Virus record (IMG/VR): IMGVR_UViG_2541047822_000003
Length of the DNA stretch: 53,032 bases
Strand: one strand, 5' to 3'
DNA from: a virus
Taxonomy: Duplodnaviria; Heunggongvirae; Uroviricota; Caudoviricetes
Position 1 is the stretch's first letter; each line of letters opens with the position of its first letter. Under the pieces are notes generated by a model. The model did no database searches. It had not been told where the DNA came from and saw nothing but the letters and a program-made list of their open reading frames with translations. Of this stretch, positions 2,795 to 17,876 are shown piece by piece. A program made the position numbers and the translations under genes.

Positions 2795-5378
2795 TTGCAT
2801 ATTCCTTAGCCCAGCGGGGCAGTGATAATGTCTTAATAGCTGGCCATTCATCGGTATTCAGGCAGTCAGACAGGGTTCGCAGATTGCGGTGATATTCCTG
2901 TTGACCTGCCAGTTTTGCTTCTTCGCCCATCATGAAAATTTCAACCGGATAACGTCCGCATTCAATAGTTGTGCTGGCAACCAGAAAAACGAAAGTTGGC
3001 TGCACTCCAAACTGTGCTTCATAACCGTCACTGTAGAATGCATCCTGAACGTGATAGCGGTAGTCGTAATAAGCGGTTTTGAATCGTTGAATATCCGCCG
3101 TAGTTTTCACGTCCATGATCCAGTGAAATTCAGGGATAATTTTGTCCGGACGGCACCGACACAAAATTCCTGTTTCAGGATCTTCCCAGTAAATTGATGA
3201 TTCAGCGTGTCCGGCGCTTTCAACAAGCCATTGCCCCAGCGGCAAAGCCATAACGCTTTGATACATGAGTTCAATTTTCCGGCCTTCTTCCGCAGTGATA
3301 ACCGTTTTTCCTGTGCTTGCGCATTCCATCAGAAACGCTTTCTCTTCTTCTTTTCCGGCGTTTGTACGGCGGTTAAATTCAGGTGCTACGATAAAGCGGT
3401 TACTGAATTCTTCCGGTTCAAGTACCCGGCAGTGGAAAGCAGTTCCTAAATCGAGCGTTTTTGTCTTTGTGGTGTCCACGGGGGCATTTTTACGCCACAA
3501 ATATAGTGCCGGAGTATCAGCAATGTCATCGAGCTGAGACTTACTGATACCGGGACCCGCGTGGTAATTCTCATTCGAAATTCCGTAATAAATACCTGGC
3601 TCTATGTCTTCTACGATTACGGGATCTGCGACTTCGCCAGTTTCATCACTGCAATCGCGATGCGGATCGCTGCCAGCATTCTCATTGTGCGGATGTTCAG
3701 CGCCTTCCATTTCCTCCGGATCATTTTCCTTAGCTTCAACCTGACTCTCTTCAGCGAATGTTTCCTGGTATGTTGCGTCGCCCATCACCGCACCACAGTC
3801 AGGGCAGTTATCCCCGCCAGTCTGGCCGCAGGCATTGCAGGCTATTTCCGGTTCCTGTTGCACTACTGGCTCAGGTTGATTCATATCTGGGCTGGTTTTT
3901 TCCGTTTCTGGCTGGTTCTGGTACACACAATCGCGAGTCTGGATCCCCTTTACCCATTTCGGATCGCTAATTCCGTCAACAAATTCACCACGTGATGCAG
4001 CAAGCAATTTATCGTCATCGACAGGATTTTTTGATGGAATGTTTTTCCGGGCTTCATGGAGTTCTGCCCGCAGTTCCTGATATTTCGCATCAACAGAATT
4101 TACCTGTGACTGAGCATCCAGCGGCTGCGTGTCCTGATGATGTTCAGTTGCGTCCGGTTCCATTGTTTCAGCCTCTCCCTGTTCAACTGCCGTTGTTCCA
4201 GATGGTTGCGGTTTTTCTTCATCATCCTGTTTTCCTTCTTCTGTTACTCGCTGCGGCATCGGGGCAGAGGAGCGACCGCAGGCAATATCCACGATTTCCG
4301 GATCAGGGTTGGCATGATCGGTTTCAGTCAGTACTTTGTTCAGATATTCAGTGACGTGCGCGGGGATGACCTCGATCCCAATTGGTGCTTCTTTTACGGA
4401 CGCAACCACGATGGCGCGGGAATAATCCAGCCCGCCAGGCATGGTGATGAATTTGTCGCGGAAAACAGAAAAGGGCGGTTTATTTTCAGCGATAATTTCC
4501 TCAATGCGTTTAGCGTGTGCCGGATGAAGGTTATAGATGTCCAGATCCATTGAACGGGCCAGTACGCCAGTGGCTACGTCGCGCGCCAGTGACGTCAGAT
4601 CGTGTACGAAACCTTCGCCGCGATCGGTGAGGTTTCCGCCGCCAGCATTAGCACCGGAAGCCGTGCGAGTGATGTGTGAAACACGATTACCCTTCATCCA
4701 CTCTTTTGTCAGCAGTCCTCGATCGGTGTAGTCAGCGTTCAGGTATGCTTCGAAAAAAGCAGTTATCAGTCCCAGGTTTGAATTACCAGGATTAGGGAAA
4801 ACTTTGTCAGTGTCACGAACCAGTTTGTGGAGTTCGCGAATTTCCAGCGGGTCGAGCAGGCTGGTTTTGTGGGAAACAGCCAGGGCAGTAACAGCCGGTA
4901 GTTCTTCAGCCCGAGCAATGTGTAATGCCTGGAGTCCGTCGCGTGAAACGTGCGTTACCGGTTTTTCGCTGCCGTGTTGAGCAAGCCAACGAATGGGCAG
5001 TTCCTGGCCAGAAATTGGGAGTAGCATATTCTCCTCAATCTCAGTCATGTCTTCGCCGTTGACGTTGGTATTGCCTTGATAGTGAGCGTTGTCTGGTGCT
5101 GCTCCCGGTTTTAGTTCCCATGTCATGGAGTCTTTGCTGAGTTGATAGCGTTCACTCCAGGTAAAATCGATCTCACCTTCAGCGGGCAGGTCATTAACGA
5201 CAGGAAAATTCGTGGCAACAGCTTTAAAATAGCTGCTCAGTTTTTTACCTGACTTAACGATCAGGTAGTCCAGAGTGGCACAGGTCGATTCAAAATCGTT
5301 GCTTGCCCACAGGACGACGTCAGGTTCACCGGATGATTTTTTCGCTTTCCGTAACAGGAAGAGTGGTTTTGTGCTCAT
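2787..5378 (-). CDS. recE: RecE exonuclease VIII
   Basis: 863-aa [32 protein letters not shown]...; recognised as Rac RecE, upstream of recT. Confidence 0.9.
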
Positions 5379-6000: not shown

Positions 6001-6221
6001 CACCATGACTCCGCCTTTACAGGTAAACCATCACGACCGAGGAAGACTTTAATCATGCGGTCAGTAATGAATGTTTTTGTGGTCAGGTTACGAATATATA
6101 GTTTTCGCTTTTTAATATTGTTTGCCGAGGCAATATATGTCCGGCCTTCATGAAGAACATAATCGCCAGGAGTCACACACTGACGTGGTATTTCATCAGT
6201 TCCGAAGTGATGTGCAATCAT
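6000..6221 (-). CDS. kilR: KilR, FtsZ-inhibiting cell-division toxin
   Basis: ORF 6000-6233; start set at [22 protein letters not shown] (cat 6219-6221), 73 aa; recognised as Rac KilR. Confidence 0.85.
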
Positions 6222-6662
6222 AATTATCTCCATTTTTACAAATGAACTTTGTTGATGCGGTGTCTGGTGCCTCCAGGTGACTGCAACCAGTTAACAATTA
6301 CAGTCGGCTTTCCCACCCAAACCAATAAGGACTGACATGACTTTTAACTGTGCCACGTGCGCTTAGCCGCATTCACCGCATCACAAAATTCACTTTAAAA
6401 AGGGCGGACATCAGCCGAACTTCAAGAAAAAAACTGATGCCGCCAGGACTACACACAGCAATGTCGTTATTTACAACCGGAGGCGCACTCCCACCATTTA
6501 AATTTAACAGACAAGACCGACTCTTTATGGATATCGGAAATGCGCCTTCGTGTTGTGCCCGGTTTTATTTCACCACCTCCGGGCTTCGGTGGTCTCGGCT
6601 ATACCCCTACAGCGAGAGCTTGTGTTAACATTTCAATACCCTTACAGTTGAGAGTTATTGAT

Positions 6663-7151
6663 ATGTTGGATGTATTTACTCCATTGTTGAAACTTTTTGC
6701 TAACGAGCCACTCGAAAGACTTATGTATACGATTATCATTTTTGGTCTCACTCTCTGGCTGATACCGAAAGAGTTTACTGTCGCATTCAATGCTTATACT
6801 GAAATACCTTGGCTCTTTCAGATTATCGTTTTTGCCTTTTCTTTCGTGGTCGCCATTTCCTTCTCAAGATTGCGAGCACATATTCAAAAGCATTATTCAT
6901 TACTACCAGAGCAACGAGTATTGCTTCGTTTATCTGAGAAAGAAATCGCTGTATTTAAAGATTTCCTTAAAACAGGAAATCTTATTATCACTTCTCCTTG
7001 CCGTAACCCGGTTATGAAAAAATTAGAACGGAAGGGCATCATTCAACATCAGAGTGATAGCGCAAACTGTTCTTATTATCTCGTCACCGAAAAATACTCC
7101 CATTTTATGAAGTTATTCTGGAACAGCAGGAGTAGACGTTTTAATCGTTAG
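6663..7151 (+). CDS. sieB: Superinfection exclusion protein B
   Basis: ORF 6540-7151; start set at ATG 6663 (MLDVFTPLLKLFANEPLERLMYTIIIFGLTLWLIP...), 162 aa with TM helices; recognised as SieB. Confidence 0.85.
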   Translation: MLDVFTPLLKLFANEPLERLMYTIIIFGLTLWLIPKEFTVAFNAYTEIPWLFQIIVFAFSFVVAISFSRLRAHIQKHYSLLPEQRVLLRLSEKEIAVFKDFLKTGNLIITSPCRNPVMKKLERKGIIQHQSDSANCSYYLVTEKYSHFMKLFWNSRSRRFNR

Positions 7152-8504: not shown

Positions 8505-8913
8505 ACACATCCGCATGGCGATGAATGCCTGGGCGCATCCGGACGGTGAAAAAGTTCCGGCAGCTGAAATAACCAGGGCTTATTTTGAACTGGGTATGAC
8601 GTTCCCAGAACTGTATGACGACAGCCATCCGGAAGCCCTGGCTCGCAATACCCAGAAAATTTTCCGCTGGGTAGAGAAAGACACCCCTGATGCAGTTGAA
8701 AAAATTCAGGCGTTGTTACCAGCTATCGAAAAAGCAATGCCACCTCTGCTGGTGGCCCGAATGCGCAGCCATAGCTCAGCCTATTTTCGGGAACTAGTGG
8801 AGACGCGGGAACGACTGGTGAGAGACGCTGATGATTTTGTCGCAGTGGCGATCGCTGGTTTCAACCAGATGAATCGTGGTGGCCCTGCAGGAAATATTGT
8901 GGCTGTGCATTGA
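8488..8913 (+). CDS. ydaT: YdaT (toxin partner of YdaS, CII-position protein)
   Basis: 141-aa ORF MKIKHEHIRMAMNAWAHPDGEK...; AGGAG RBS at 8475-8479; overlaps ydaS 3' end; recognised as Rac YdaT. Confidence 0.8.
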   Translation: MKIKHEHIRMAMNAWAHPDGEKVPAAEITRAYFELGMTFPELYDDSHPEALARNTQKIFRWVEKDTPDAVEKIQALLPAIEKAMPPLLVARMRSHSSAYFRELVETRERLVRDADDFVAVAIAGFNQMNRGGPAGNIVAVH

Positions 8914-8984
8914 CTCGCAATATTCATACCGGATCACTTCCGGCAATTTGTGAGTAAAAAGATTCGGTATCAAAAGAGGTGAGT

Positions 8985-10055
8985 ATGGCTAACGCCTGGC
9001 TCAGATTATGGCATGACATGCCAAATGACCCTAAGTGGCGAACAATTGCCAGGGTGTCAGGACAGCCAATTGCAACAGTGATGGCAGTGTATATCCACCT
9101 CCTGGTGAGCGCGTCACGAAATGTCACGCGAGGTCACATTGATGTCACGACAGAAGATTTGGCAAGTGCGCTCGACGTGACAGAAGAGGTAATTGATTCA
9201 ATTTTGCAGACGATGCAGGGGCGGGTACTTGATGGTGATTTAATCACTGGATGGGAAAAACGCCAGGTGCTTAAAGAGGACAACGGCAATATTTCGCAAA
9301 CCGCAAAATCTCCTGCAGAGCGCAAGAGGGCGCAGCGAGAGAGGGAAAGAAAGCGGGAACAAAATGGCGATTGTCACGGCGCGTCACGAAATGTCACGCA
9401 CATGTCACGACGAGTCACGACAGATAAAGATACAGATAAAGATACAGATCAAGAAGATCAAAACACTATGGTCCATGGCGTAAAAAACGCCACGAACCAG
9501 GCAGGGGATGTTCAGACCGTCAATCTTGGTCAGCCAGCAGGCACGACACCGGAAGCCGATTCAGCGTATGCGCTGAAAGCCGATTCGGGCGCTGTGCAGC
9601 AGGTGATGACCGCAAGGGCGGAGCAATCACACCAACTGCAGCAGCCTGAAGCCGATTCCGCCATTCAGCGGGAAGCCGATCGGGTAGTCCCGGAAAACAC
9701 CGGGCAGTCTGTGGGACGAGTGGATTATCCGGATGTGTTCGAACAGGTCTGGCGGGAGTACCCGTTGCGTGCTGGGGCAAACCCGAAGAAATCCGCTTTC
9801 AGTGCCTGGAAGGCCAGATTACGCGAGGGGGTGCCACCAGAGGCCATGCTGGATGGCGTGAGGCGTTACGCAAGATACTTGGCGGCTACCGGGAAAACGG
9901 GAACGGAATTTGTTCAGCGAGCGACGACGTTTTTTGGACCGGACCGGAATTTTGAGAACCCCTGGTTGCTCCCGGTAAGCGGCACGAACAACCAGCGTTG
10001 TGTGAATCATATTTCTGAACCGGATAACGAAATTCCGCCGGGCTTCAGGGGGTAA
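8985..10055 (+). CDS. Replication initiator, lambda O-like (replisome-organizer N-terminal domain)
   Basis: N-terminus MANAWLRLWHDMPNDPKWRTIARVSG... resembles phage replisome-organizer domains; the gene contains two iteron clusters and an acidic TDKDTDKDTDQEDQ linker. ATG 8985 preceded by AGAGG. Confidence 0.7.
   Translation: MANAWLRLWHDMPNDPKWRTIARVSGQPIATVMAVYIHLLVSASRNVTRGHIDVTTEDLASALDVTEEVIDSILQTMQGRVLDGDLITGWEKRQVLKEDNGNISQTAKSPAERKRAQRERERKREQNGDCHGASRNVTHMSRRVTTDKDTDKDTDQEDQNTMVHGVKNATNQAGDVQTVNLGQPAGTTPEADSAYALKADSGAVQQVMTARAEQSHQLQQPEADSAIQREADRVVPENTGQSVGRVDYPDVFEQVWREYPLRAGANPKKSAFSAWKARLREGVPPEAMLDGVRRYARYLAATGKTGTEFVQRATTFFGPDRNFENPWLLPVSGTNNQRCVNHISEPDNEIPPGFRG
9108..9150 (+). 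repeat. Iteron cluster 1 (4 x GTCAC[G/A] units) inside the O-like gene
   Basis: gcgcGTCACGaaatGTCACGcgagGTCACAttgatGTCACGac read directly; the first 21 bp recur exactly at 9379-9399. Confidence 0.7.
9371..9420 (+). repeat. Iteron cluster 2 (5 x GTCACG units) inside the O-like gene
   Basis: ttGTCACGgcgcGTCACGaaatGTCACGcacatGTCACGacgaGTCACGa read directly; candidate origin (ori) iterons. Confidence 0.7.
9421..9445 (+). repeat. Tandem direct repeat CAGATAAAGATA x2
   Basis: cagataaagatacagataaagatacagatc immediately after iteron cluster 2; encodes the acidic DKDTDKDTD linker. Confidence 0.6.
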
Positions 10056-10095
10056 GTGTTAATTTCTGGTCATGAGGTAATTTTCAGGAGGGCTT

Positions 10096-10518
10096 GTGGC
10101 AAAAGTTTTTACACAAGAAGAGCGGGAAAAAATTAAAGGGCAGGTTCTTGAACTCGTACGCCAGAGTGGACGCGAGACGTTACGACAACTGGAAGCTAAA
10201 ACTGGGGCAACAAGATATCTGATGAGCGTTCTGGCCAGAGAGCTGGTTGCCAGTGGCGATGTATACAATTCTGGCTACGGGTTATTCCCGTCTGAACAGG
10301 CTCGTAAAGACTGGCAAAATGCCCGCAAAAAATTATCGAGGGCAAAGCTGAAGAAACCGGTTGTGGTTGATCCGGACCTTATCTGGTCATTACCTGACGG
10401 AGAAATACGTCGCTACGACAGTCGCCTAAACATAATCTGTCGCGAGTGCCGGAAGAGCGAAGTTATGCAGCGCATATTGTCGTTTTATCAGGGGGATGTT
10501 CGGTATTTATTGAAGTGA
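10096..10518 (+). CDS. Hypothetical protein of the replication module
   Basis: 140-aa ORF with GTG start preceded by AGGAGG; downstream of the O-like gene; no recognisable motif. Confidence 0.5.
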   Translation: MAKVFTQEEREKIKGQVLELVRQSGRETLRQLEAKTGATRYLMSVLARELVASGDVYNSGYGLFPSEQARKDWQNARKKLSRAKLKKPVVVDPDLIWSLPDGEIRRYDSRLNIICRECRKSEVMQRILSFYQGDVRYLLK

Positions 10519-10574: not shown

Positions 10575-10602
10575 GCTAGCGTGGTTGTCCGCTTTGTGCC
10601 AA
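10575..10602 (+). repeat. 28-bp palindrome-like junction element, copy A (ttgtccgcttt-GTGCCA-agagcagacgc)
   Basis: 11-6-11 architecture with GTGCCA core, shared with copies at 14258-14285 and 15424-15451; lies 250 bp upstream of the BCCT gene. Confidence 0.55.
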
Positions 10603-10852
10603 GAGCAGACGCTGGTAATTCGTGCCTAATATACTTCACTTAACTTATATCCCAGCTTTGATACAGATCATACAAATTAAATGCCCCAGTAATTGGCAGG
10701 CTGAGTAACTTAAAACTCCTTAGAATATAGGATGATTTGTATCGGCACTCATTCCACCATGCATTCCGATTAACCCCGCATAGCCAGTTGAACTTTGCTA
10801 CTCTGTGAGAGGTAGTACCTTCTATCCAGTGCGGATTTAATTAATGGAATAA

Positions 10853-12856
10853 ATGATTATGAGTGAAAATGATACAACCCCAAAGAAGTCTACAAGCCAG
10901 ATTAACAAAGCGGTATTCTTTACATCTGCTTTGCTAATTTTCCTTCTTGTCGCCTTTGCCGCCGTATTCCCGGATGTCGCCGACAAAAATTTTAAACTAC
11001 TTCAGCAACAAATCTTCACGAATGCCAGCTGGTTCTACATACTTGCTGTGGCCCTGATTTTACTGAGCGTCACGTTCCTTGGACTCTCACGTTACGGTGA
11101 TATAAAGCTGGGCCCAGACCATGCGCAGCCTGATTTCAGCTACCACTCCTGGTTCGCGATGCTTTTTTCGGCAGGGATGGGGATCGGCCTGATGTTCTTT
11201 GGCGTTGCCGAACCTGTGATGCATTATCTTTCGCCACCTGTCGGCACTCCAGAGACCGTTGCGGCAGCGAAGGAAGCCATGCGCCTGACGTTCTTCCACT
11301 GGGGTCTGCACGCATGGGCAATTTATGCCATCGTGGCGCTGATTCTGGCCTTTTTCAGTTACCGTCACGGTCTGCCTTTAACGCTGCGTTCTGCGCTCTA
11401 TCCCATTATCGGCGATCGCATTTACGGGCCTATAGGCCACGCGGTTGATATCTTCGCCGTGATAGGCACTGTCTTTGGCGTTGCAACATCGCTGGGTTAC
11501 GGTGTATTGCAGGTGAATGCCGGTTTGAACCATCTTTTCGGCGTGCCCATCAATGAAACGGTACAGGTCATTTTGATCGTGGTCATCACGGGGTTAGCGA
11601 CGATTTCGGTGGTGTCCGGCCTGGACAAGGGAATACGCATCCTGTCTGAGCTTAATCTGGGCCTGGCGGTGTTGCTCCTGGCGCTGGTCTTGTGCCTGGG
11701 TCCCACTGTGCTTCTGCTGAAGTCATTTGTGGAAAATACGGGTGGTTATCTGTCGGAACTGGTGAGTAAAACGTTCAACCTTTACGCGTATGAACCCAAG
11801 TCGAGCAACTGGCTGGGGGGCTGGACATTATTATACTGGGGATGGTGGCTTTCATGGTCGCCGTTTGTAGGTATGTTCATTGCACGCGTTTCCCGCGGCA
11901 GGACAATTCGTGAGTTCGTGACTGGCGTGTTGTTTGTTCCCGCCGGCTTTACGCTCATGTGGATGACGGTGTTTGGAAACAGCGCCATCTATCTCATCAT
12001 GAACCAGGGCGCCACTGACCTCGCCAATACCGTTCAGCAGGATGTTGCGCTTGCCCTGTTTAATTTCCTGGAGCATTTCCCGTTCTCTTCCGTGCTGTCA
12101 TTCATTGCAATGGCGATGGTCATCGTCTTCTTTGTAACGTCTGCTGATTCGGGGGCAATGGTTGTGGATACTCTGGCATCAGGTGGGGTGGCAAACACGC
12201 CCGTCTGGCAGCGAATTTTCTGGGCATCGCTCATGGGCGTTGTTGCTATTGCCCTGCTGATCGCAGGGGGGCTGAGTGCGTTGCAAACCGTAACGATAGC
12301 GAGTGCATTGCCCTTCTCAGTTATCTTATTAATATCCATATACGGACTGTTAAAAGCCCTGCGTCGGGATTTGACCAAGCGTGAAAGCCTTAGCATGGCG
12401 ACTATTGCTCCTACGGCTGCACGTAACCCAATTCCCTGGCAGAGAAGGTTACGCAATATCGCGTATTTGCCGAAGCGCTCTCTTGTGAAACGTTTTATGG
12501 ACGACATTATCCAACCCGCCATGACGCTGGTTCAGGAGGAACTTAACAAGCAGGGAACGATAAGCCACATCAGTGACGCCGCCGAGGATCGTATTCGCCT
12601 TGAAGTCGATTTGGGCAACGAGCTGAATTATATATATGAAGTGAGGCTTCGCGGGTATAACTCACCGACCTTCGCGCTCGCTGCGCTGGATAATGATGAG
12701 CAGCAGAGTGAACAACATCGATATTATCGCGCTGAAGTCTATCTCAAAGAGGGCGGCCAAAATTATGATGTAATGGGCTGGAATCAGGAACAGCTGATTA
12801 ATGACATACTGGACCAGTACGAAAAACACCTGCACTTCCTGCATCTGGTTCGTTAA
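10853..12856 (+). CDS. BCCT-family transporter, BetT-like (choline/betaine-type osmoprotectant uptake)
   Basis: 667-aa polytopic membrane protein with the BCCT signature GWTLLYWGWWLSWSPFVGMFIARVSRGRTIREF and a BetT-like C-terminus (DILDQYEKHLHFLHL). Alternative start ATG 10859. Confidence 0.8.
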   Translation: MIMSENDTTPKKSTSQINKAVFFTSALLIFLLVAFAAVFPDVADKNFKLLQQQIFTNASWFYILAVALILLSVTFLGLSRYGDIKLGPDHAQPDFSYHSWFAMLFSAGMGIGLMFFGVAEPVMHYLSPPVGTPETVAAAKEAMRLTFFHWGLHAWAIYAIVALILAFFSYRHGLPLTLRSALYPIIGDRIYGPIGHAVDIFAVIGTVFGVATSLGYGVLQVNAGLNHLFGVPINETVQVILIVVITGLATISVVSGLDKGIRILSELNLGLAVLLLALVLCLGPTVLLLKSFVENTGGYLSELVSKTFNLYAYEPKSSNWLGGWTLLYWGWWLSWSPFVGMFIARVSRGRTIREFVTGVLFVPAGFTLMWMTVFGNSAIYLIMNQGATDLANTVQQDVALALFNFLEHFPFSSVLSFIAMAMVIVFFVTSADSGAMVVDTLASGGVANTPVWQRIFWASLMGVVAIALLIAGGLSALQTVTIASALPFSVILLISIYGLLKALRRDLTKRESLSMATIAPTAARNPIPWQRRLRNIAYLPKRSLVKRFMDDIIQPAMTLVQEELNKQGTISHISDAAEDRIRLEVDLGNELNYIYEVRLRGYNSPTFALAALDNDEQQSEQHRYYRAEVYLKEGGQNYDVMGWNQEQLINDILDQYEKHLHFLHLVR

Positions 12857-12863
12857 CAGCAAC

Positions 12864-12890
12864 ATGCCGCCACAGAGGCGGCATTTATTT
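12864..12890 (+). terminator. Rho-independent terminator-like hairpin after the BCCT gene
   Basis: ATGCCGCC-acaga-GGCGGCAT followed by TTATTT, 8 nt after the BCCT stop. Confidence 0.6.
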
Positions 12891-12919
12891 ATCCCGGCTG
12901 CAATATGAGGGAATGCAGA

Positions 12920-14197
12920 ATGATTTCACGCTGGAAATGGATGCTGAAGCAGACATTTAAAAAACTATGGTTCAGGGCAACGTTATTCGCAATTGTCGCA
13001 ATAATAACGGCCCTTTTATCAATTCTTTTTAAATCAATGATACCTGAGTCGGTTTCCGTGAAGGTTGGTGCGGAAGCAGTCGATAACATTCTGAACATAC
13101 TGGCATCGAGTATGCTGGCAGTGACCACATTTTCGCTGAGCATCATGGTCACAGCCTACGGTTCAGCCACTACTAATGTGACTCCCAGAGCTACTCGTTT
13201 AGTTGTTGAAGACGTCACCACACAAAATGTACTGGCCACCTTCATCGGTTCTTTTCTCTTCAGTCTGGTAGGGATTATTGCCCTCAATATGGGAGCTTAT
13301 GGAGAAAGGGGGAGAGTCATTTTATTCATTGTAACACTGGTTGTCATTGCCTTAATCCTCATCACATTGCTTCGCTGGATACAGCATTTGACCTCTCTGG
13401 GGAGGGTTGGTGAGACAACGGCAAAAGTAGAACAGGCGGCCATCGAAACATTTATTGCGAGAGCAAGAAATCCCTGTCTCGGCGGATATCCATGGCTTGA
13501 GAACAATGAACAGCCGAAAGGAACGGTTGCAGTTTATCCGAAAAAGATTGGCTATGTTGAATATGTTGATATGGTGAAACTCAGCAAGCTGCTGACCAAT
13601 GATCCCCGTCATGTATACCTCGTGGCGCAGCCGGGCAGTTTCATACATCCGTCCACGCCAGTTTTGTACCTGAGTCAGGGCCAGGAGTCATCAATCAGCA
13701 CCGATTTACTTGAGACGATTATTGTCTCGGATGTACGTTCATTTGCTCAGGACCCCCGATTTTGTCTTAGCGTCATGGCCGAAATAGCCTGCCGAGCCCT
13801 TTCCCCCGCAGTGAACGATCCTGGAACCGCCATTGATGTCATTGGCAGAGGTGTACGTATACTTTCCGCTTACGCGCAGAATAAATCTGATGAAATAGAA
13901 GTGAAATATCCTTCTGTACATGTTGCACCACTTCAGAATAACGATCTACTTGAAGACTTTTTCTCACCTGTTGCGCGCGATGGTGCCAGTATGAGGGAAA
14001 TTCAGATAAGGGTACTTAAAGGACTGTCGATGCTGAGTAAGGGTTGGCCTGGAATTTTTGCTGAAGCCGCACAAACCCTAGCATTTGAAACATTAGAGCA
14101 TGCTACTCGTGCTGACCATATAGATTCTGATAGATATCTAATAAAATCAATTTATTATAATTTATTTAGTGGCGAAGATTCTAATAAAAAACCATAG
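12920..14197 (+). CDS. Membrane protein, DUF2254-like (4 N-terminal TM helices plus soluble C-terminal domain)
   Basis: ORF 12905-14197; start preferred at ATG 12920 (GAGGGA 7 nt upstream). Four hydrophobic helices then a soluble domain; family call is from recall, not a search. Confidence 0.65.
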   Translation: MISRWKWMLKQTFKKLWFRATLFAIVAIITALLSILFKSMIPESVSVKVGAEAVDNILNILASSMLAVTTFSLSIMVTAYGSATTNVTPRATRLVVEDVTTQNVLATFIGSFLFSLVGIIALNMGAYGERGRVILFIVTLVVIALILITLLRWIQHLTSLGRVGETTAKVEQAAIETFIARARNPCLGGYPWLENNEQPKGTVAVYPKKIGYVEYVDMVKLSKLLTNDPRHVYLVAQPGSFIHPSTPVLYLSQGQESSISTDLLETIIVSDVRSFAQDPRFCLSVMAEIACRALSPAVNDPGTAIDVIGRGVRILSAYAQNKSDEIEVKYPSVHVAPLQNNDLLEDFFSPVARDGASMREIQIRVLKGLSMLSKGWPGIFAEAAQTLAFETLEHATRADHIDSDRYLIKSIYYNLFSGEDSNKKP

Positions 14198-14257: not shown

Positions 14258-14285
14258 GCGTCTGCTTTGTGCCATGAGCGGACAT
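14258..14285 (+). repeat. 28-bp palindrome-like junction element, copy B (gcgtctgcttt-GTGCCA-tgagcggacat)
   Basis: Same 11-6-11/GTGCCA architecture; 61 bp downstream of the DUF2254 stop. Confidence 0.55.
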
Positions 14286-14489
14286 GGGCCTCCTCAGCAG
14301 TTCTGCAGACAGCTCTCGTGTAGTAAGAAACTGGAAAGCAGGGTTTCGATATCTGGTCATGAGTCTAAGATAGTCAGGACTGCGGCAGAATCGGATGTTA
14401 CTAAGCTTGGATCAACAGTATCTTCGATGTAAGAAAATTACCTTGAAAATATTTGGGGCCAAGGTTACGCTAATAAAAAATTGTCAAGT

Positions 14490-14522
14490 AAAACGCAATT
14501 ATTATATTAATAGTTGCGTTTT
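14490..14522. terminator. AT-rich hairpin between convergent genes (AAAACGCAA-15 nt-TTGCGTTTT)
   Basis: 9-bp inverted repeat read directly between the DUF2254 gene and the 3' end of the 225-aa gene; weak stem with long loop. Confidence 0.3.
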
Positions 14523-14556
14523 AATAATATCTTGCAGATGTAATAATATTGGGTGT

Positions 14557-15234
14557 TTATGTCAAACCTGCTCTACGTCCTCTTGACATAATTTCCTTCT
14601 GATAAGGAATTGTTCCATCTTTAATAAGCCTTGAGAGCTCGTTCAATCCACCATCAATTCTCTGAGAGACGTTAAAGAGAATATTTCTATTTGCTAGCAC
14701 AGGGATTAAGTATTCATACTCCTCATAGTCATCACAAAAATCCATAGCACACATACCCCACTCAGCATTTATAAATGGATCTATAACCTCATAAATAAAT
14801 TGAGATGTCAGCATTGAGACATCTTTATTAGGAGCAGCAAAATGTTGAATAGAGTTCCTCAATTTCCCAAAATCATTGTATAACTTAAGATTATTAATCT
14901 TCTTTCCAGTTGCAGCCCAAACCTTCTCAGGCAACTCTGAATAAGTAATTGTTTGCCCTTTTTCTAATAAGCTTTCAAAATCAAGAAGCCCTGTAGTTTT
15001 ATTTACGCAATCAGCTGTTGATTTTGGTAATGACTCAAAAATTAAAAGAGGGTGTTCCTGAGCAAGACGAGCTTTGAGAAAAATCTCACAAGCATGGGCT
15101 GCCTGTAAGACGCCCAATTGTGACCACATAGAGTTACTCATATCATAAAAATGAGCAAGGTAGTTGGCATGAGCAAGTGAACCTGCTCCCAAAACAATCA
15201 TATGCTCATGAACTTTTTTTAAATTAACATCCAT
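14557..15234 (-). CDS. Hypothetical protein with a HEPN-like Rx4H motif (putative RNase / abortive-infection-type protein)
   Basis: 225-aa ORF in AT-rich DNA; GAGGAG RBS 7 nt upstream; predicted alpha-helical with motif GKLRNSIQHF (R-N-x3-H) typical of HEPN catalytic sites. Motif-level inference only. Confidence 0.6.
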   Translation of the reverse strand: MDVNLKKVHEHMIVLGAGSLAHANYLAHFYDMSNSMWSQLGVLQAAHACEIFLKARLAQEHPLLIFESLPKSTADCVNKTTGLLDFESLLEKGQTITYSELPEKVWAATGKKINNLKLYNDFGKLRNSIQHFAAPNKDVSMLTSQFIYEVIDPFINAEWGMCAMDFCDDYEEYEYLIPVLANRNILFNVSQRIDGGLNELSRLIKDGTIPYQKEIMSRGRRAGLT

Positions 15235-15360
15235 TTAACACTCCTCAAAAAACATTTGTTTACGTTATCAAAAAAAGATGGGTATTGCCCACATTTTAAG
15301 ACGATTATATTTAAATTTGTTATGTGGTGTTACTTAAGTTTCGGATGAATAATATGTCTG

Positions 15361-15395
15361 CTCTTCGCTCTTCGCTCTTCGCTCTTCGCTCTTCG
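15361..15395 (+). repeat. Tandem heptanucleotide repeat (CTCTTCG)x5 plus a degenerate sixth unit
   Basis: ctcttcgctcttcgctcttcgctcttcgctcttcgctcaccg read directly; flanked by GTCTGCT (15356-15362) and GCGGAC (15402-15407), resembling arms of the junction palindrome. Confidence 0.85.
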
Positions 15396-15423
15396 CTCAC
15401 CGCGGACCTTCAGCTTCGTTAAC

Positions 15424-15451
15424 ATGTCCGCTCCGTGCCAGGAGCGGACAT
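15424..15451 (+). repeat. Perfect 28-bp palindrome, copy H (ATGTCCGCTCC-GTGCCA-GGAGCGGACAT)
   Basis: 11-bp perfect inverted arms around a 6-bp GTGCCA core; no flanking T-tract, so not a canonical intrinsic terminator; lies between the two minus-strand cargo genes. Confidence 0.8.
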
Positions 15452-15582
15452 TAATGAGTTAAGTTCTGAAAGTAGCATTAAATACGCACATGCTTTTCCT
15501 AATAACTCGATTGTCATTTATATCGTTAAACAGTTCCGGAGACAACTCTGACTTACAGGAATATCGCTAAGCCTCTGCCTCC

Positions 15583-16464
15583 CTAAGCAATATCCTGATT
15601 GCTGAGTTGAGGCATTAATCGCTCAAATAATTCATCACTTTCATAGGGGATGTTATTAATATGCCGAGAATAAATTAACCCTCTAGGACAAAGCTTGGAC
15701 AAAGAACTTTCACATAAAACACCTATACATTTTTTGTTTTCCCCTGCCATAAAGTCTTCTAAATTCCTCAAGATAAAATTTCGTGACAACTCACGATGTT
15801 CGCTTATTGCCATTCTCGCATCTTCAGAATTAATGAGAGACAGGTTAGGAAGCAAATCAGTAACATTAACGGCCACCATGCCTAGATTTTTAAGTGATGA
15901 GCTATCCTTTATCCTGCGCACGATCTGCTGGTTTGCAACTTTTATGTTTTTAGATAGTTTTTTTAACGACTTAACTCGTTTGCATTCTACAAAAAGAATT
16001 TTGCCGTCAGAGAGTTTCACTTCGATATCACAAATGCTTTTAAGAGAAATTTTATATCCTGCACGTAGAAATCTTGCAGCCATTGACAACTCAAACAGAA
16101 AGTCCCTTGCAGGATCGTTCTCAGAAGTAGCACGAAATTCTTGACCAGTGATAACCTTCTTTATTTGATCGAGATACTCCTTGATATCAAGCCATTTAAG
16201 ATCATTGTAAACTCTTATAATTTCATTAGCTTCCACGTGAGAATTCATCATCTCCTTCATAAAGGCAACTAAATTTTCATCGGGTGTATCTTTGAAAATT
16301 TTTTCACCATTTGATAGTGCTTTCAATTTTTGAAGGTTTTTGTGGTATACCCCATATCTTGTTACTGCAAACCTAAAACCCAAACTATCGAACCAAGTAC
16401 AAACCTCTTCAAATTTAGTTAACAAACCTGAAAACTCATGCTCGTATATTTCCTTGCCTTCCAT
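15583..16464 (-). CDS. Hypothetical protein with a PD-(D/E)xK-like nuclease core motif
   Basis: ORF runs to 16542 (TTG); start preferred at ATG 16464 (MEGKEIYEHEF, AAAGAGAAG upstream). Motif pattern E(FLFELSMAARFL)...D(ICDIEVKL)-SDG-KILFVECK fits a beta-hairpin D...ExK nuclease core. AT-rich. Inference. Confidence 0.6.
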   Translation of the reverse strand: MEGKEIYEHEFSGLLTKFEEVCTWFDSLGFRFAVTRYGVYHKNLQKLKALSNGEKIFKDTPDENLVAFMKEMMNSHVEANEIIRVYNDLKWLDIKEYLDQIKKVITGQEFRATSENDPARDFLFELSMAARFLRAGYKISLKSICDIEVKLSDGKILFVECKRVKSLKKLSKNIKVANQQIVRRIKDSSSLKNLGMVAVNVTDLLPNLSLINSEDARMAISEHRELSRNFILRNLEDFMAGENKKCIGVLCESSLSKLCPRGLIYSRHINNIPYESDELFERLMPQLSNQDIA

Positions 16465-16704
16465 ATTCTTCTCTTTAAATAAACCCAGATTCGTATTAGT
16501 GCTTGTCAAATTCATAGGGGCTGTGCCCCTTAAAATCATCAAGTGGGAGCTTGACCTGTAAAGATTGTGAAGCTATTCGCATCTCGATTAAATGCTCTAT
16601 ATAGTTGACCAGACCAATTTATACCAAACGGCAGAATAAAAGAAGGAATCCTCTCTGCACTTAACTAGTCATTCCTTGACTACTGTGATTAAGATCACTT
16701 CCAA

Positions 16705-16730
16705 AGTCCGCTTATCGCTCAAAGCGGACT
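16705..16730 (+). repeat. Palindrome related to the junction element (AGTCCGCTT-atcgctca-AAGCGGACT)
   Basis: 9-bp perfect arms sharing GTCCGCT/AGCGGAC with copies A, B and H but with a different 8-bp centre; upstream of the PD-(D/E)xK-like gene. Confidence 0.5.
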
Positions 16731-16908
16731 AGAAGGTTAGCTTGCGTCGGACTTGGCGTATTTAAAGAAGTGCTGGTGGTGACTGGTTGTTGTGTTCCAT
16801 TTCTACAGAACAAAATCACAGAAACTATACCCAATAGTTATATTGAATCAATGATGAGACAGCCTCATATTTATCAGAACTGGTGTACGTCCAATACAGG
16901 AGGTTGTC

Positions 16909-17212: not shown

Positions 17213-17551
17213 CTATTTTTTGGTGCTATAGACTTTTTCGCCCGAGAAGTCTGGAGCGACCCAAAAGTTAATATTAAACTGAGCATCATCGCTTAGTTCA
17301 ACACGGTGCCAGTATTGTGGTGGGCTTGTTGCAAAAGCGCCAGCATTAATGACTACTTTTATCTCCGGTTCAGTAGCATTCTCATCAGTAAAACCATAAT
17401 ATGTTACAGTGCCTTCCATTACGCACAACTGCCCAAAAACACCTGCTGCTGTATTATGATGTGTTAATAACGCTGAAGGTACGTTCTCTTTTGTGAAGAA
17501 CGGAGTTGAGCGTTTGATTACCCAATCTTTAGGAATTCTCTTGTGTGTCAT
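17213..17551 (-). CDS. Small conserved protein, possibly cupin/DUF1971-like (function unknown)
   Basis: ORF 17213-17575; start at ATG 17551 (MTHKRIPKDW) with strong GGAGG RBS; family assignment is tentative. Confidence 0.6.
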   Translation of the reverse strand: MTHKRIPKDWVIKRSTPFFTKENVPSALLTHHNTAAGVFGQLCVMEGTVTYYGFTDENATEPEIKVVINAGAFATSPPQYWHRVELSDDAQFNINFWVAPDFSGEKVYSTKK

Positions 17552-17876
17552 AACCACCTCCTCAAAAACATGCATTATAAATGCGTGTTTTTGAGGGTTA
17601 TGTCAAGCTGTTATGAAACACATAATTGATATGTTGATTAGAGGAGAAGATATAATAAATATGGTTGTTTTTCGTATAACTATTTGTTTTACTTTTAGTT
17701 TATGCATTCTGTGTGTTAGGAATAAGTTATTAAAGTTTAATCAAAAAATCTCGATGTAGTCCACATAGATTATTGTTACTGAACCTTACTGTGTGTATTA
17801 GTTGTGTTCTGAAATTTCAGCTTAATTATTTATGATGTATTTTTTAACGATAAATATTTTCCCAGGATACCTTTAC

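Follow-up and report, generated by a model that had tools for sequence, protein, structure and literature searches.

Two adjacent genes of an Escherichia coli prophage as candidate independent single-gene nuclease effectors with HEPN and PD-(D/E)xK folds

Two neighboring genes in the cargo region of a lambdoid prophage, here called A and B, appear to be independent single-gene cassettes rather than one two-gene system, each probably specifying a solo nuclease effector that responds to a trigger; we put the probability of this joint reading at roughly 0.6. A specifies a HEPN-fold protein whose RNxxQH motif is invariant among its homologs. In the product of B, an E...D...ExK...Q set, likewise invariant, lies in a PD-(D/E)xK core. 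Both genes lie in a 53,032-nucleotide stretch of viral DNA (IMG/VR record IMGVR_UViG_2541047822_000003), which we refer to as the window.

The two genes are hosted by a Rac-type lambdoid prophage of E. coli, with recET, kilR, sieB and ydaS/T as marker genes. As the initial annotation had described, both open reading frames are on the minus strand, in an AT-rich segment that separates the replication module from the nin module: the GC content of positions 14501–16500 is 0.34–0.39, versus about 0.42–0.54 in the adjoining 500-bp intervals on both sides, and the flanking genes are a DUF977 replication-module gene on one side and DUF1367/nin genes on the other. Both genes are opposed to the phage early-right operon. 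Two further statements of that annotation, that neither protein has a Walker motif and that the genes are bracketed by copies of a junction palindrome, were also borne out: a sequence scan found no Walker A motif in A or in B, and palindrome copies surround the genes at 14260, 15356–15407, 15426 and 16706. A search for known RNA families between 14100 and 17300 returned none at E values up to 1. The pair is found in 8 of 5,426 complete E. coli genomes, and the E. coli copies are 99.6–100% identical. The positions of the features are collected in Table 1.

Table 1. Positions of genes, motifs and putative signals in the window
Feature	Position	Strand	Remarks
G-type palindrome, left edge of cargo island	10587..10610		directly 3' of DUF977 replication-module gene
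G-type palindrome, far end of cassette A	14260..14283		E. coli–Citrobacter homology stops at 14261
Putative terminator of A	14489..14523	-	AT-rich hairpin with 16-bp stem, 34 nt past stop; inverted repeat 94% complementary
Gene A	14557..15234	-	225 aa; RefSeq WP_000383005.1, annotated hypothetical; solo HEPN-fold protein
HEPN Rx4H motif codons of A, R126-N127-S-I-Q130-H131	14842..14859	-	from sequence
RBS of A, GAGGAG	15241..15246	-	6 nt before ATG, from sequence
Promoter-like site of A, GTAACA-18-TATAAT	15304..15333	-	consensus scan, 10/12 matches; putative function
T-type palindrome with 7-bp repeat in center	15356..15407		just upstream of promoter-like site of A
G-type palindrome between cassettes A and B	15424..15451		ATGTCCGCTCC GTGCCA GGAGCGGACAT, 11-6-11; stable local hairpin
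Gene B	15583..16515	-	310 aa; RefSeq WP_001054829.1, hypothetical; N-terminal helical domain and C-terminal PD-(D/E)xK core
Catalytic set of B, codons E142 to Q197	15925..16092	-	E142 in helix, D163, E177-C178-K179 in strand, Q197 in next helix
T-type palindrome upstream of B, right edge of cargo island	16706..16729		spacer TCGCTC

The inferred product of A contains the string GKLRNSIQHF (residues 123–132), from which a HEPN assignment had been proposed. An Rx4–6H string is by itself weak evidence, given that chance matches occur three times in B and that A has two matches, the second of which (R56-x4-H61) is also invariant. The HEPN assignment rests on fold and on invariance across homologs, and both sustain it: the AF2 model (pLDDT 91.9) is an up-down helical bundle, and 47 homologs of 45–93% identity all retain R126, N127, Q130 and H131, N127 being the polar residue that follows the arginine of the conserved motif. 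About 65 additional residues at the C-terminus of the model form a helical region. The dN/dS ratio of A is 0.15, which indicates purifying selection, and the AT-rich hairpin 3' of the gene is also kept beside the Serratia copy. The suggestion that each gene has its own ribosome-binding site held for A but not for B, for which no convincing Shine–Dalgarno sequence precedes any of three candidate starts.

A frame of 319 residues had been given for B. This frame exists (15583–16542, minus strand) and contains the strings FLFELSMAARFL, ICDIEVKL and KILFVECK that had been picked out, but the TTG at 16542 from which it begins is only the longest possible start; the RefSeq protein begins at the ATG at 16515, and most homologs begin at the residue equivalent to the ATG at 16464 (293 residues). 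Of the three candidate starts, the homologs favor 16464, and AF2 confidence is below 50 at residues 1–10 and 17–19. The AF2 model as a whole (pLDDT 87.9) has the canonical core topology, helix-strand-strand-strand-helix-strand, in which a conserved catalytic glutamate is carried by the helix, an aspartate by strand 2 and the (D/E)xK element by strand 3. E142, D163, E177, K179 and Q197 are invariant both in 40 close homologs and in 46 distant ones of about 20–46% identity, and invariance thus falls on exactly the residues that the initial annotation had chosen in proposing a PD-(D/E)xK nuclease. The N-terminal helical domain, residues 28–122, has invariant residues of its own among the distant homologs (W41, R53 and Y57). 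The family is large, with about 2,600 clusters at 50% identity (2,605 representatives), all of about 300 residues. Searches of Pfam, NCBIfam and PADLOC (PADLOC-DB 2.0) with B matched no model, and the PADLOC-DB 2.0 models tried therefore miss this family. Nor did B give a significant profile match to named PD-(D/E)xK families (Mrr_cat, HSDR_N, SduA_C, NucS and others). Foldseek comparison of B with the PDB yielded weak matches only, and comparison of the A and B family profiles with PDB chain sequences yielded nothing useful.

The junction palindrome GTCYGC-N12-GCRGAC occurs four times in the 53 kb (starts at 10587, 14260, 15426 and 16706), as compared with 0.07 expected from shuffled sequences, and all four copies sit at cargo junctions. 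A fifth copy, at 15356–15407, is stretched by a tandem repeat of the 7-bp unit GCTCTTC (plus strand), of which the window has five; its Citrobacter form is unexpanded and 24 bp long. The number of heptamer units varies with strain, from 4 to 15 among nine near-identical E. coli copies. E. coli and Citrobacter share a 1.2-kb block of homology that has A as its sole gene and ends at palindromes. At the far end of cassette A the Citrobacter counterpart has its outer arm replaced and retains the spacer and the inner arm; at the other end the homology stops at 15457, 6 bp past the palindrome between A and B. The equivalent of the palindrome at 10587 follows the same DUF977 gene in phage Tritos. The palindrome at 16706 begins a stretch of about 100 bp common to 1,559 E. 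coli genomes, and the same element also precedes hokD in other prophages and in Tritos. The layout is regular, with cargo cassettes bounded by palindromes of 24–28 bp. Among other palindrome-bracketed cassettes, 5 of 10 sampled cargo proteins match PADLOC defense models, and some cassettes carry HAD- and GNAT-like genes, judged by the look of the sequence only. We considered and rejected two other identities for the palindromes. They are not intrinsic terminators, as a terminator scan flags none of them and no T-run follows them, and the palindrome downstream of B is not a relic attC, as the 136-nt fold is a local 11-bp hairpin only, with flanks that are not complementary and nothing of the long attC fold.

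Elsewhere, the families of A and B occur almost only on prophages, integron arrays, integrative elements and conjugative plasmids. A is present alone in hotspots of P2-like and lambdoid prophages; the P2-like copy adjoins HicAB, a PDC-S19 protein and a PD-T7-4-like protein, and the Enterobacter copy is in the same lambdoid hotspot. In Vibrio integron arrays, B stands as a lone open reading frame flanked by two attC repeats, and its neighbors differ by strain (in one such array, which has 18 attC-type repeats, it lies exactly between two of them). It is also cargo of an ICE-like element and of a mobilizable element, in the latter of which it adjoins a TIR protein (PDC-S66/ThsB-like) and a type I restriction gene, and in Aeromonas it occupies a small chromosomal islet with no recognizable defense neighbors. 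Mobile-integron cassettes have been reported to encode phage defense systems (bioRxiv 10.1101/2024.07.02.601719). The island around A and B in the window also holds a BetT-like transporter, DUF2254 and DUF1971, that is, non-defense cargo, and so location in a hotspot is not by itself proof of a defense function.

As to what the two proteins do, we infer nuclease activity, substrates and triggering: most likely, each is a solo, trigger-activated nuclease effector. An anti-phage or toxin role is plausible for both, as we infer from the defense-rich hotspots, the integron cassettes and weak matches to PADLOC candidates. A would be a metal-independent endoribonuclease with an active site formed by dimerization, with HepS, Tha, AbiV and HEC-08 as working analogs. 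Having its own promoter-like site, it is probably expressed in the lysogen, where it would be inactive until an infecting phage triggered the cutting of tRNA, rRNA or mRNA, which would halt the infection while sacrificing the cell. B would be a metal-dependent PD-(D/E)xK nuclease fused to a family-specific N-terminal helical domain, this domain being most likely a sensor or oligomerization part, and once activated B would cut DNA, either that of the invader or that of the cell.

The foremost alternative, which we regard as unlikely though worth keeping in view, is that A and B are nucleases with a role other than phage defense: in addiction or stabilization of mobile elements, as weapons against rival plasmids or prophages, or in host RNA or DNA metabolism under stress. 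The near-confinement of both families to mobile elements would suit such a role. Integron arrays hold stabilizing toxin genes, and HEPN proteins are the classical toxins of MNT-HEPN pairs, which are among the best structural matches of A. Immune systems that act against conjugative plasmids are reported in a 2026 preprint in which DUF3644 is named. An addiction module, however, normally needs an antitoxin or immunity partner, and no conserved gene of this kind was found beside A or B, their neighbors differing in every context examined. Moreover, HEC-08 and HepS, which among functionally tested relatives are the nearest by family or genomic context, act against phages.

For B, a more specific and rather improbable possibility is that it is a solitary modification-dependent (type IV-like) restriction endonuclease, the N-terminal domain of which reads the modification so that modified phage DNA is cut directly, with no abortive infection. 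That the gene stands alone, with no methylase, is consistent with type IV logic. The structural matches of B include McrC and several restriction enzymes, two or three of its 46 distant relatives have sub-threshold matches to named PD-(D/E)xK families, including Mrr_cat and HSDR_N, and one UniRef name calls a B homolog an Mrr-domain protein. On the other hand, B itself matches no restriction model of Pfam or PADLOC, and McrC needs the GTPase McrB, which is absent here.

Are A and B a single system? The initial annotation had presented them as a candidate two-gene module, and their context has already largely refuted this view, which we hold to be very improbable in any of its forms (sensor and effector, toxin and antitoxin, or a cooperating RNase/DNase dual effector). 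The two genes are immediate neighbors on one strand, and the eight matching complete E. coli genomes, like the window, all contain both, but the near-identity of these copies means that their co-occurrence traces to one recent ancestor. Outside E. coli, homologs of A and B were not found together, within 6–8 kb, in any of 10 genomic places examined: tblastn revealed A without B in Citrobacter, Serratia, Enterobacter and Vibrio, and B without A in Pectobacterium, Vibrio, Aeromonas and Trichlorobacter. Neither conserved co-occurrence nor an operon structure across genomes, as expected of a two-gene module, was thus seen. In the window itself, the genes are separated by a 348-bp gap that carries two junction palindromes and the promoter-like site of A; the Citrobacter block has A alone; and in one strain IS1 disrupts B and leaves A intact. 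There are precedents for a joint system. PD-T4-2-like pairs of GmrSD_N and HEPN genes exist inside one palindrome cassette, and in the EC042_2821 family a HEPN domain is fused to a restriction-type domain (PMC3710099). A also has an unrelated nuclease-like neighbor in Vibrio (an Mrr_cat protein) and, in Enterobacter, a 587-residue neighbor in which a D...EVK string was noticed only by visual inspection. The profile of B, however, is unrelated to the Vibrio Mrr-like, Serratia PDC-S19 and Enterobacter 587-residue proteins, and no A–B fusion is present among the matches listed (120 of the 456 for A; 49 and 150 for B), all of which are of single-domain size. The other part of the earlier proposal, that the genes were independently acquired cassettes, agrees with their separate contexts and with the palindrome-limited homology block that contains A alone.

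Several candidate partners or homologs were rejected individually. The possibility that A and B are a split HEPN-restriction fusion of the EC042_2821 type was set aside, as the profile of B is unrelated to the DUF3644/PDC-S19 protein, the order of the genes does not fit such a fusion and co-occurrence is lacking. The 321-residue Mrr_cat-like gene upstream of the Vibrio A homolog is not a B homolog (hhalign probability of 0.1), the gene for the 587-residue protein after the Enterobacter A homolog showed no relation to B in a profile comparison, and the 142-residue genes that follow B in Aeromonas and Vibrio, considered as a conserved partner, show no similarity.

That A and B are decaying or inert cargo without current function is scarcely credible: the pair is rare and IS903 is found upstream of B in a strain other than that with IS1 in the gene, but both open reading frames are intact in eight of the nine E. 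coli copies, the catalytic residues are invariant over a wide phylogenetic distance, A is under purifying selection, and the AF2 models of both proteins are confident.

Returning to the reading of A and B as independent solo effectors, we offer a tentative and rather speculative extension. The two genes may be units of a so far undescribed cassette system of lambdoid prophages in which cargo, including many defense genes, is exchanged as palindrome-bounded modules. Conceivably, each cassette would have a G-type palindrome (central GTGCCA) on one side and a T-type palindrome (central TCGCTC) on the other, such that a T-then-G arrangement would mark the junction of stacked cassettes. Exchange might take place at or inside the palindromes, either site-specifically, as at integron attC or plasmid pdif sites, or by recombination of the RecET/Red type between very short homologous stretches. 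A and B could then be the founders of new solo nuclease defense families, and the heptamer repeat in the T-type palindrome of A might tune the expression of A.

If each gene alone protects against phage, two compact single-gene nuclease families would join the defense repertoire. That of B is large and is spreading via prophages, integrons and integrative elements. A, for its part, would carry the theme of partner-less prophage HEPN proteins, exemplified by HepS, Tha and HEC-08, into a different HEPN lineage, and it raises the questions of what its trigger is and how the host prophage escapes self-targeting. Intervals from G-type to T-type palindromes could serve to mine lambdoid prophages for new cargo, as attC sites do for integrons.

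How do A and B compare with known systems? The earlier opinion that they are not any described system is in keeping with our profile searches, which assign B to no family and give A only partial matches to a HEPN core. HepS of the Salmonella prophage Gifsy-1 (PDB 9oik) is a partner-less HEPN protein in a place equivalent to that of A; it is activated by a siphovirus tail-tip protein and cleaves tRNA anticodon loops (PMC13043305). No sequence homology of A to HepS was found. The only sequence-level relatives of A that we found are PDC-S64, DUF3644 and HEC-08: in a PADLOC search with 47 members of the A family, PDC-S64 was matched by 47 (best 2.8e-11), DUF3644 by 41 and HEC-08 by 15. The matches are limited to the HEPN part of longer candidate proteins (for PDC-S64, residues 24–135 of A against positions 19–118 of a 339-position profile), and A gave no full-length match to the DUF3644, HEC-08 or PDC-S64 models. 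The Pfam DUF3644 model was not matched by A, and 3 of the 47 homologs matched it at E values of 0.005 or worse. HEC-08 is a validated single-gene DUF3644-HEPN defense protein in which the motif histidine is essential (bioRxiv 10.1101/2024.01.29.577857); A lacks its zinc-finger-like C-terminal domains, having no CxxC motifs in its 225 residues, and lacks the restriction-type C-terminus of EC042_2821. For PDC-S64, a PADLOC candidate, a literature search found no paper. The MNT-HEPN toxins (SO_3166, PDB 5yep; 7ae2; 8xdj) differ from A in being without its extra C-terminal helical region, and no MNT antitoxin gene lies beside A in E. coli, Citrobacter, Serratia, Enterobacter or Vibrio.

B, in turn, matches none of the PADLOC or Pfam models for the stand-alone or effector PD-(D/E)xK defense nucleases McrC, NucC, HamA (Hachiman), SduA (Shedu) and Can2/Card1, and it differs from them in its N-terminal helical domain and in having no partner helicase, GTPase, CARF or SAVED domain. 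Finally, we compared B with the integron defense cassettes known as BRiCs, among the tested members of which we know of no B homolog. The E. coli gene differs from these in having no attC and in being flanked by 24–28 bp palindromes that form a local hairpin only. Its Vibrio homologs, in contrast, are like the BRiCs in being single-ORF, attC-flanked cassettes in chromosomal integron arrays, and BRiCs with homologs outside integrons have indeed been reported (bioRxiv 10.1101/2024.07.02.601719).

The genes considered here, A (for a HEPN-fold protein) and B (for a protein with a PD-(D/E)xK core), lie in a segment of the Escherichia coli chromosome that contains a Rac-type lambdoid prophage. The gene order was read from an identical, annotated stretch in strain PEC1009: recT, recE, racC, kilR, sieB and ydaS/ydaT-family genes; a replisome-organiser-like gene and a DUF977 gene; a cargo island encoding a BetT-like transporter, a DUF2254 membrane protein, two hypothetical proteins and a DUF1971 protein; and then DUF1367, DUF1364 and DUF1133 (nin-type) genes, lysis genes and terminase. 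A and B are the two hypothetical proteins. Their AT-rich character, remarked on in the initial annotation, was borne out (GC 0.34-0.39 over both genes, versus about 0.42-0.54 in flanking 500-bp windows on both sides), the strings that it quoted from the two proteins are present, and a scan of both proteins found no Walker A motif. The BetT-like (BCCT choline/betaine), DUF2254 and DUF1971 genes are unusual prophage cargo and look metabolic or osmoprotective rather than defensive.

Coordinates of features in the window and in comparison loci
Feature	Position	Remarks
G-type palindrome	10587-10610	plus-strand reading; pattern starts at 10587; then BetT-like and DUF2254 genes
BetT-like (667 aa) and DUF2254 (430 aa) genes	10853-14197	cargo island
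G-type palindrome	14260-14283	plus-strand reading; pattern starts at 14260; then A (reversed)
E. coli-Citrobacter homology block	15457 to 14261	around A
Conserved non-coding segment	14268-14433	3' of A, just inside G-type palindrome
Gene A	14557..15234	minus strand; 225 aa
Second R-x4-H string of A	15052-15069	R56-H61
T-type palindrome	15356-15407	plus-strand reading; then G-type palindrome
Heptamer array	15360-15394	in T-type palindrome 5' of A
G-type palindrome	15424-15451	plus-strand reading; pattern starts at 15426; then B (reversed)
Gene B, RefSeq form	15583..16515	minus strand; ATG start; 310 aa
Gene B, longest form	15583..16542	minus strand; TTG start; 319 aa
Region equivalent to that with insertion sequences in two strains	~15583-16760	L016, L017
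T-type palindrome	16706-16729	plus-strand reading; pattern starts at 16706; after B
DUF1971 gene (120 aa)	17213-17575	right-hand part of cargo island
Palindromes, phage Tritos (L153)	2703 and 4504	
Palindromes, L012	7773-7839 and 14324-14385	
B paralogs, Vibrio array (L005)	2903-3802 and 6001-6894	
587-aa protein, Enterobacter (L029-L032)	8739-10502	

That both proteins have nuclease folds, as first proposed from motifs, we now regard as close to certain. The open reading frame of A is real, and its AF2 model is confident and all-helical (pLDDT 91.9, pTM 0.89). A profile search of Pfam and NCBIfam gave no match, and the PADLOC matches are all weak (PDC-S64, 5.9e-7; DUF3644, 2e-4; a Cas13a HEPN model, 7e-3; HEC-08, 0.013). 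PDC-S64 was matched by all 47 aligned family members (best 2.8e-11), DUF3644 by 41 and HEC-08 by 15. Sequence search returned 456 homologs, nearly all of 218-235 aa, and in the 47-member alignment (45%-93% identity) R126, N127, Q130 and H131 are invariant, as are H22, H47, E50, K54, R56, H61 and D152. By itself, an Rx4-6H string has no diagnostic value (A carries two, and B has three by chance); R126-H131 is taken to be the canonical motif because it lies in the segment that the DUF3644 and Cas13a models align with, and because it matches H128, an essential residue in HEC-08. The other R-x4-H string, R56-L-A-Q-E-H61 with P-L-L-I-F after it, is equally invariant and may contribute to the active site or fold. 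A dN/dS of 0.15 against the Serratia copy indicates purifying selection. The gene has a GAGGAG ribosome-binding site, a hairpin after the stop codon and a promoter-like site (GTAACA-18-TATAAT) in the gap between A and B. The non-coding segment of about 170 bp 3' of A is conserved (93% in Citrobacter, 72% in Serratia P2-like prophages, in which a PDC-S19 gene is inserted between A and its counterpart); an Rfam search with it gave no match.

The open reading frame of B is likewise real, the TTG-initiated version being only its longest form. Most homologs begin at the residue matching ATG 16464 (293 aa), and the true start is uncertain, since AF2 confidence falls below 50 at residues 1-10 and 17-19. 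The model (pLDDT 87.9) predicts a canonical restriction-endonuclease-like core, with E142 in helix 135-151, D163 at the start of strand 164-167, E177 and K179 in strand 173-180, and Q197 in helix 184-204. Eleven residues (W41, R53, Y57, R137, E142, D163, E177, C178, K179, R180 and Q197) do not vary among 40 close homologs, nor among 46 relatives whose identity falls as low as about 20%. B matched nothing in Pfam, NCBIfam or PADLOC, nothing useful in PHROG, nothing in a sequence search of the PDB and none of the named defence nuclease families; a few distant relatives gave sub-threshold matches to HSDR_N, Mrr_cat and SduA_C. A word-indexed search found 49 homologs, and a profile run against 1.84 billion cluster representatives recovered 2,605 relatives at E ≤1e-3 (1,526 at E ≤1e-10), the best 150 of the 2,605 being nearly all of about 290-320 aa and matched over most of their length. 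No consistent structural match emerged for the helical domain at the N terminus (about residues 28-122).

The proposal that A and B form a single module did not survive. We retrieved the contexts of homologs of each and searched every locus with both proteins; in the non-E. coli loci compared, the two never occur together. A stands without B in Citrobacter chromosomal islands; in the known variable region of Serratia P2-like prophages between the portal/terminase genes and gpA, near HicAB, a PDC-S19 (DUF3644) protein and a PD-T7-4-like DUF4145 protein; in Enterobacter lambdoid prophages right after the O and P replication genes, the same hotspot as in the window; and in a Vibrio island adjoining an Mrr-type gene and a SIR2/DUF87 pair. 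B stands without A in a Pectobacterium ICE-like element with integrase and type IV secretion genes; in an Aeromonas islet; in a Trichlorobacter mobilizable element adjoining a TIR protein (PDC-S66/ThsB-like) and a type I restriction gene; and in chromosomal integron arrays of V. parahaemolyticus, where neighbours differ between strains and, in an array with 18 attC-type repeats, the gene lies exactly between two of them. No conserved partner gene for either was found in the contexts compared. In E. coli the 2.5-kb stretch is rare (8 of 5,426 complete genomes, 99.6%-100% identity), the 348-bp gap between the genes holds two junction palindromes, a tandem repeat and the promoter-like site of A, and A is intact in one strain whose B is split by IS1. 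A and B are thus very probably independent genes.

Three further observations concern these loci. One of strains 22AR0750 and 4114 has the IS1 inside B and the other an IS903 about 220 bp upstream of B. Another V. parahaemolyticus array holds two B paralogs (37% and 46% identical to B) in separate cassettes. The Enterobacter A homolog is followed after 61 bp by a same-strand gene for a 587-aa protein, which matched nothing in Pfam or PADLOC; it has a D...EVK string, PD-(D/E)xK-like by eye, and comparison showed no relation to B. It may act as A's partner in Enterobacter, or be one more cargo gene independent of A.

The palindromes said to bracket the two genes are real: the window has four copies of GTCYGC-N12-GCRGAC (0.07 expected), each at a cargo junction. 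The elements are 24-28 bp long (GTCCGCT-N10-AGCGGAC), with an 11-6-11 layout, for example ATGTCCGCTCC GTGCCA GGAGCGGACAT, and are divided by their spacers into G-type (GTGCCA) and T-type (TCGCTC). Homology breakpoints lie at or inside them, where either site-specific or short-homology recombination might be at work. The block shared with Citrobacter around A (1,210 bp, 93%) begins slightly beyond one palindrome and ends within the other; at its far end the spacer and inner arm persist in Citrobacter but the outer arm differs. In phage Tritos a single cassette is present, in the order G, one reversed cargo gene, T and then hokD. The core pattern was found at at least 120 IMG/VR loci (L033-L152), where 17 of 26 consecutive pairs no more than 5 kb apart read G-cargo-T and none the reverse; three adjacent pairs (less than 100 bp apart) were all T then G. 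The palindromes bound lambdoid cargo cassettes in the regular order G, cargo, T, and T-then-G pairs mark the junctions of stacked cassettes. A shallow literature check found no description of this layout. Half of ten cargo proteins sampled from such cassettes matched PADLOC defence models, among them NsnA/PD-T4-2_A (accompanied by a HEPN partner gene), PDC-S35 TIR, PDC-S49 KAP NTPase and PDC-M68A HNH.

In the T-type palindrome 5' of A, tandem copies of a 7-bp unit, GCTCTTC when read on the plus strand and GAAGAGC on the coding strand, widen the centre; the unit coincides with the SapI recognition sequence. The Citrobacter counterpart is an unexpanded 24-bp palindrome with a single unit, and the array arose through expansion of the palindrome centre. 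Nine E. coli copies, otherwise 99.6%-100% identical, have 4, 4, 5, 5, 5, 6, 6, 14 and 15 units, the two longest arrays being in the strains with insertion sequences at B. The array lies immediately upstream of the -35 element of the promoter-like site, and unit number may tune expression of A.

In the best-supported reading, each gene would encode a stand-alone nuclease effector switched on by a trigger: A would be a HEPN-type RNase, and B a PD-(D/E)xK-type DNase whose own N-terminal domain would serve in sensing or assembly. To this explanation, two independent nuclease cargo genes with a plausible role in defence, we assign a probability of roughly 0.6, held at that level because defence is read from context and the hotspot also has non-defence cargo; an anti-phage role as such we favour by a little.

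A and B are new candidates for solo nuclease cargo of kinds already known, and many comparable candidates exist; what sets them apart is the large B family, devoid of any annotation, and the regular palindrome-bounded layout around both genes. For A, the strongest structural resemblance is to MNT-HEPN pairs, although A lacks their MNT antitoxin; HepS (6.9), AbiV (6.7) and LsoA (6.2) come lower in the list. Its closest tested sequence relative is HEC-08, with which it has the HEPN core alone in common. The closest working analog is HepS, a HEPN protein that resembles A in size, has no partner and comes from the corresponding region of Gifsy-1, although A falls outside the HepS family by sequence; HepS is an inactive tetramer at rest and, once activated by a tail-tip protein, cuts tRNA (PMC13043305).
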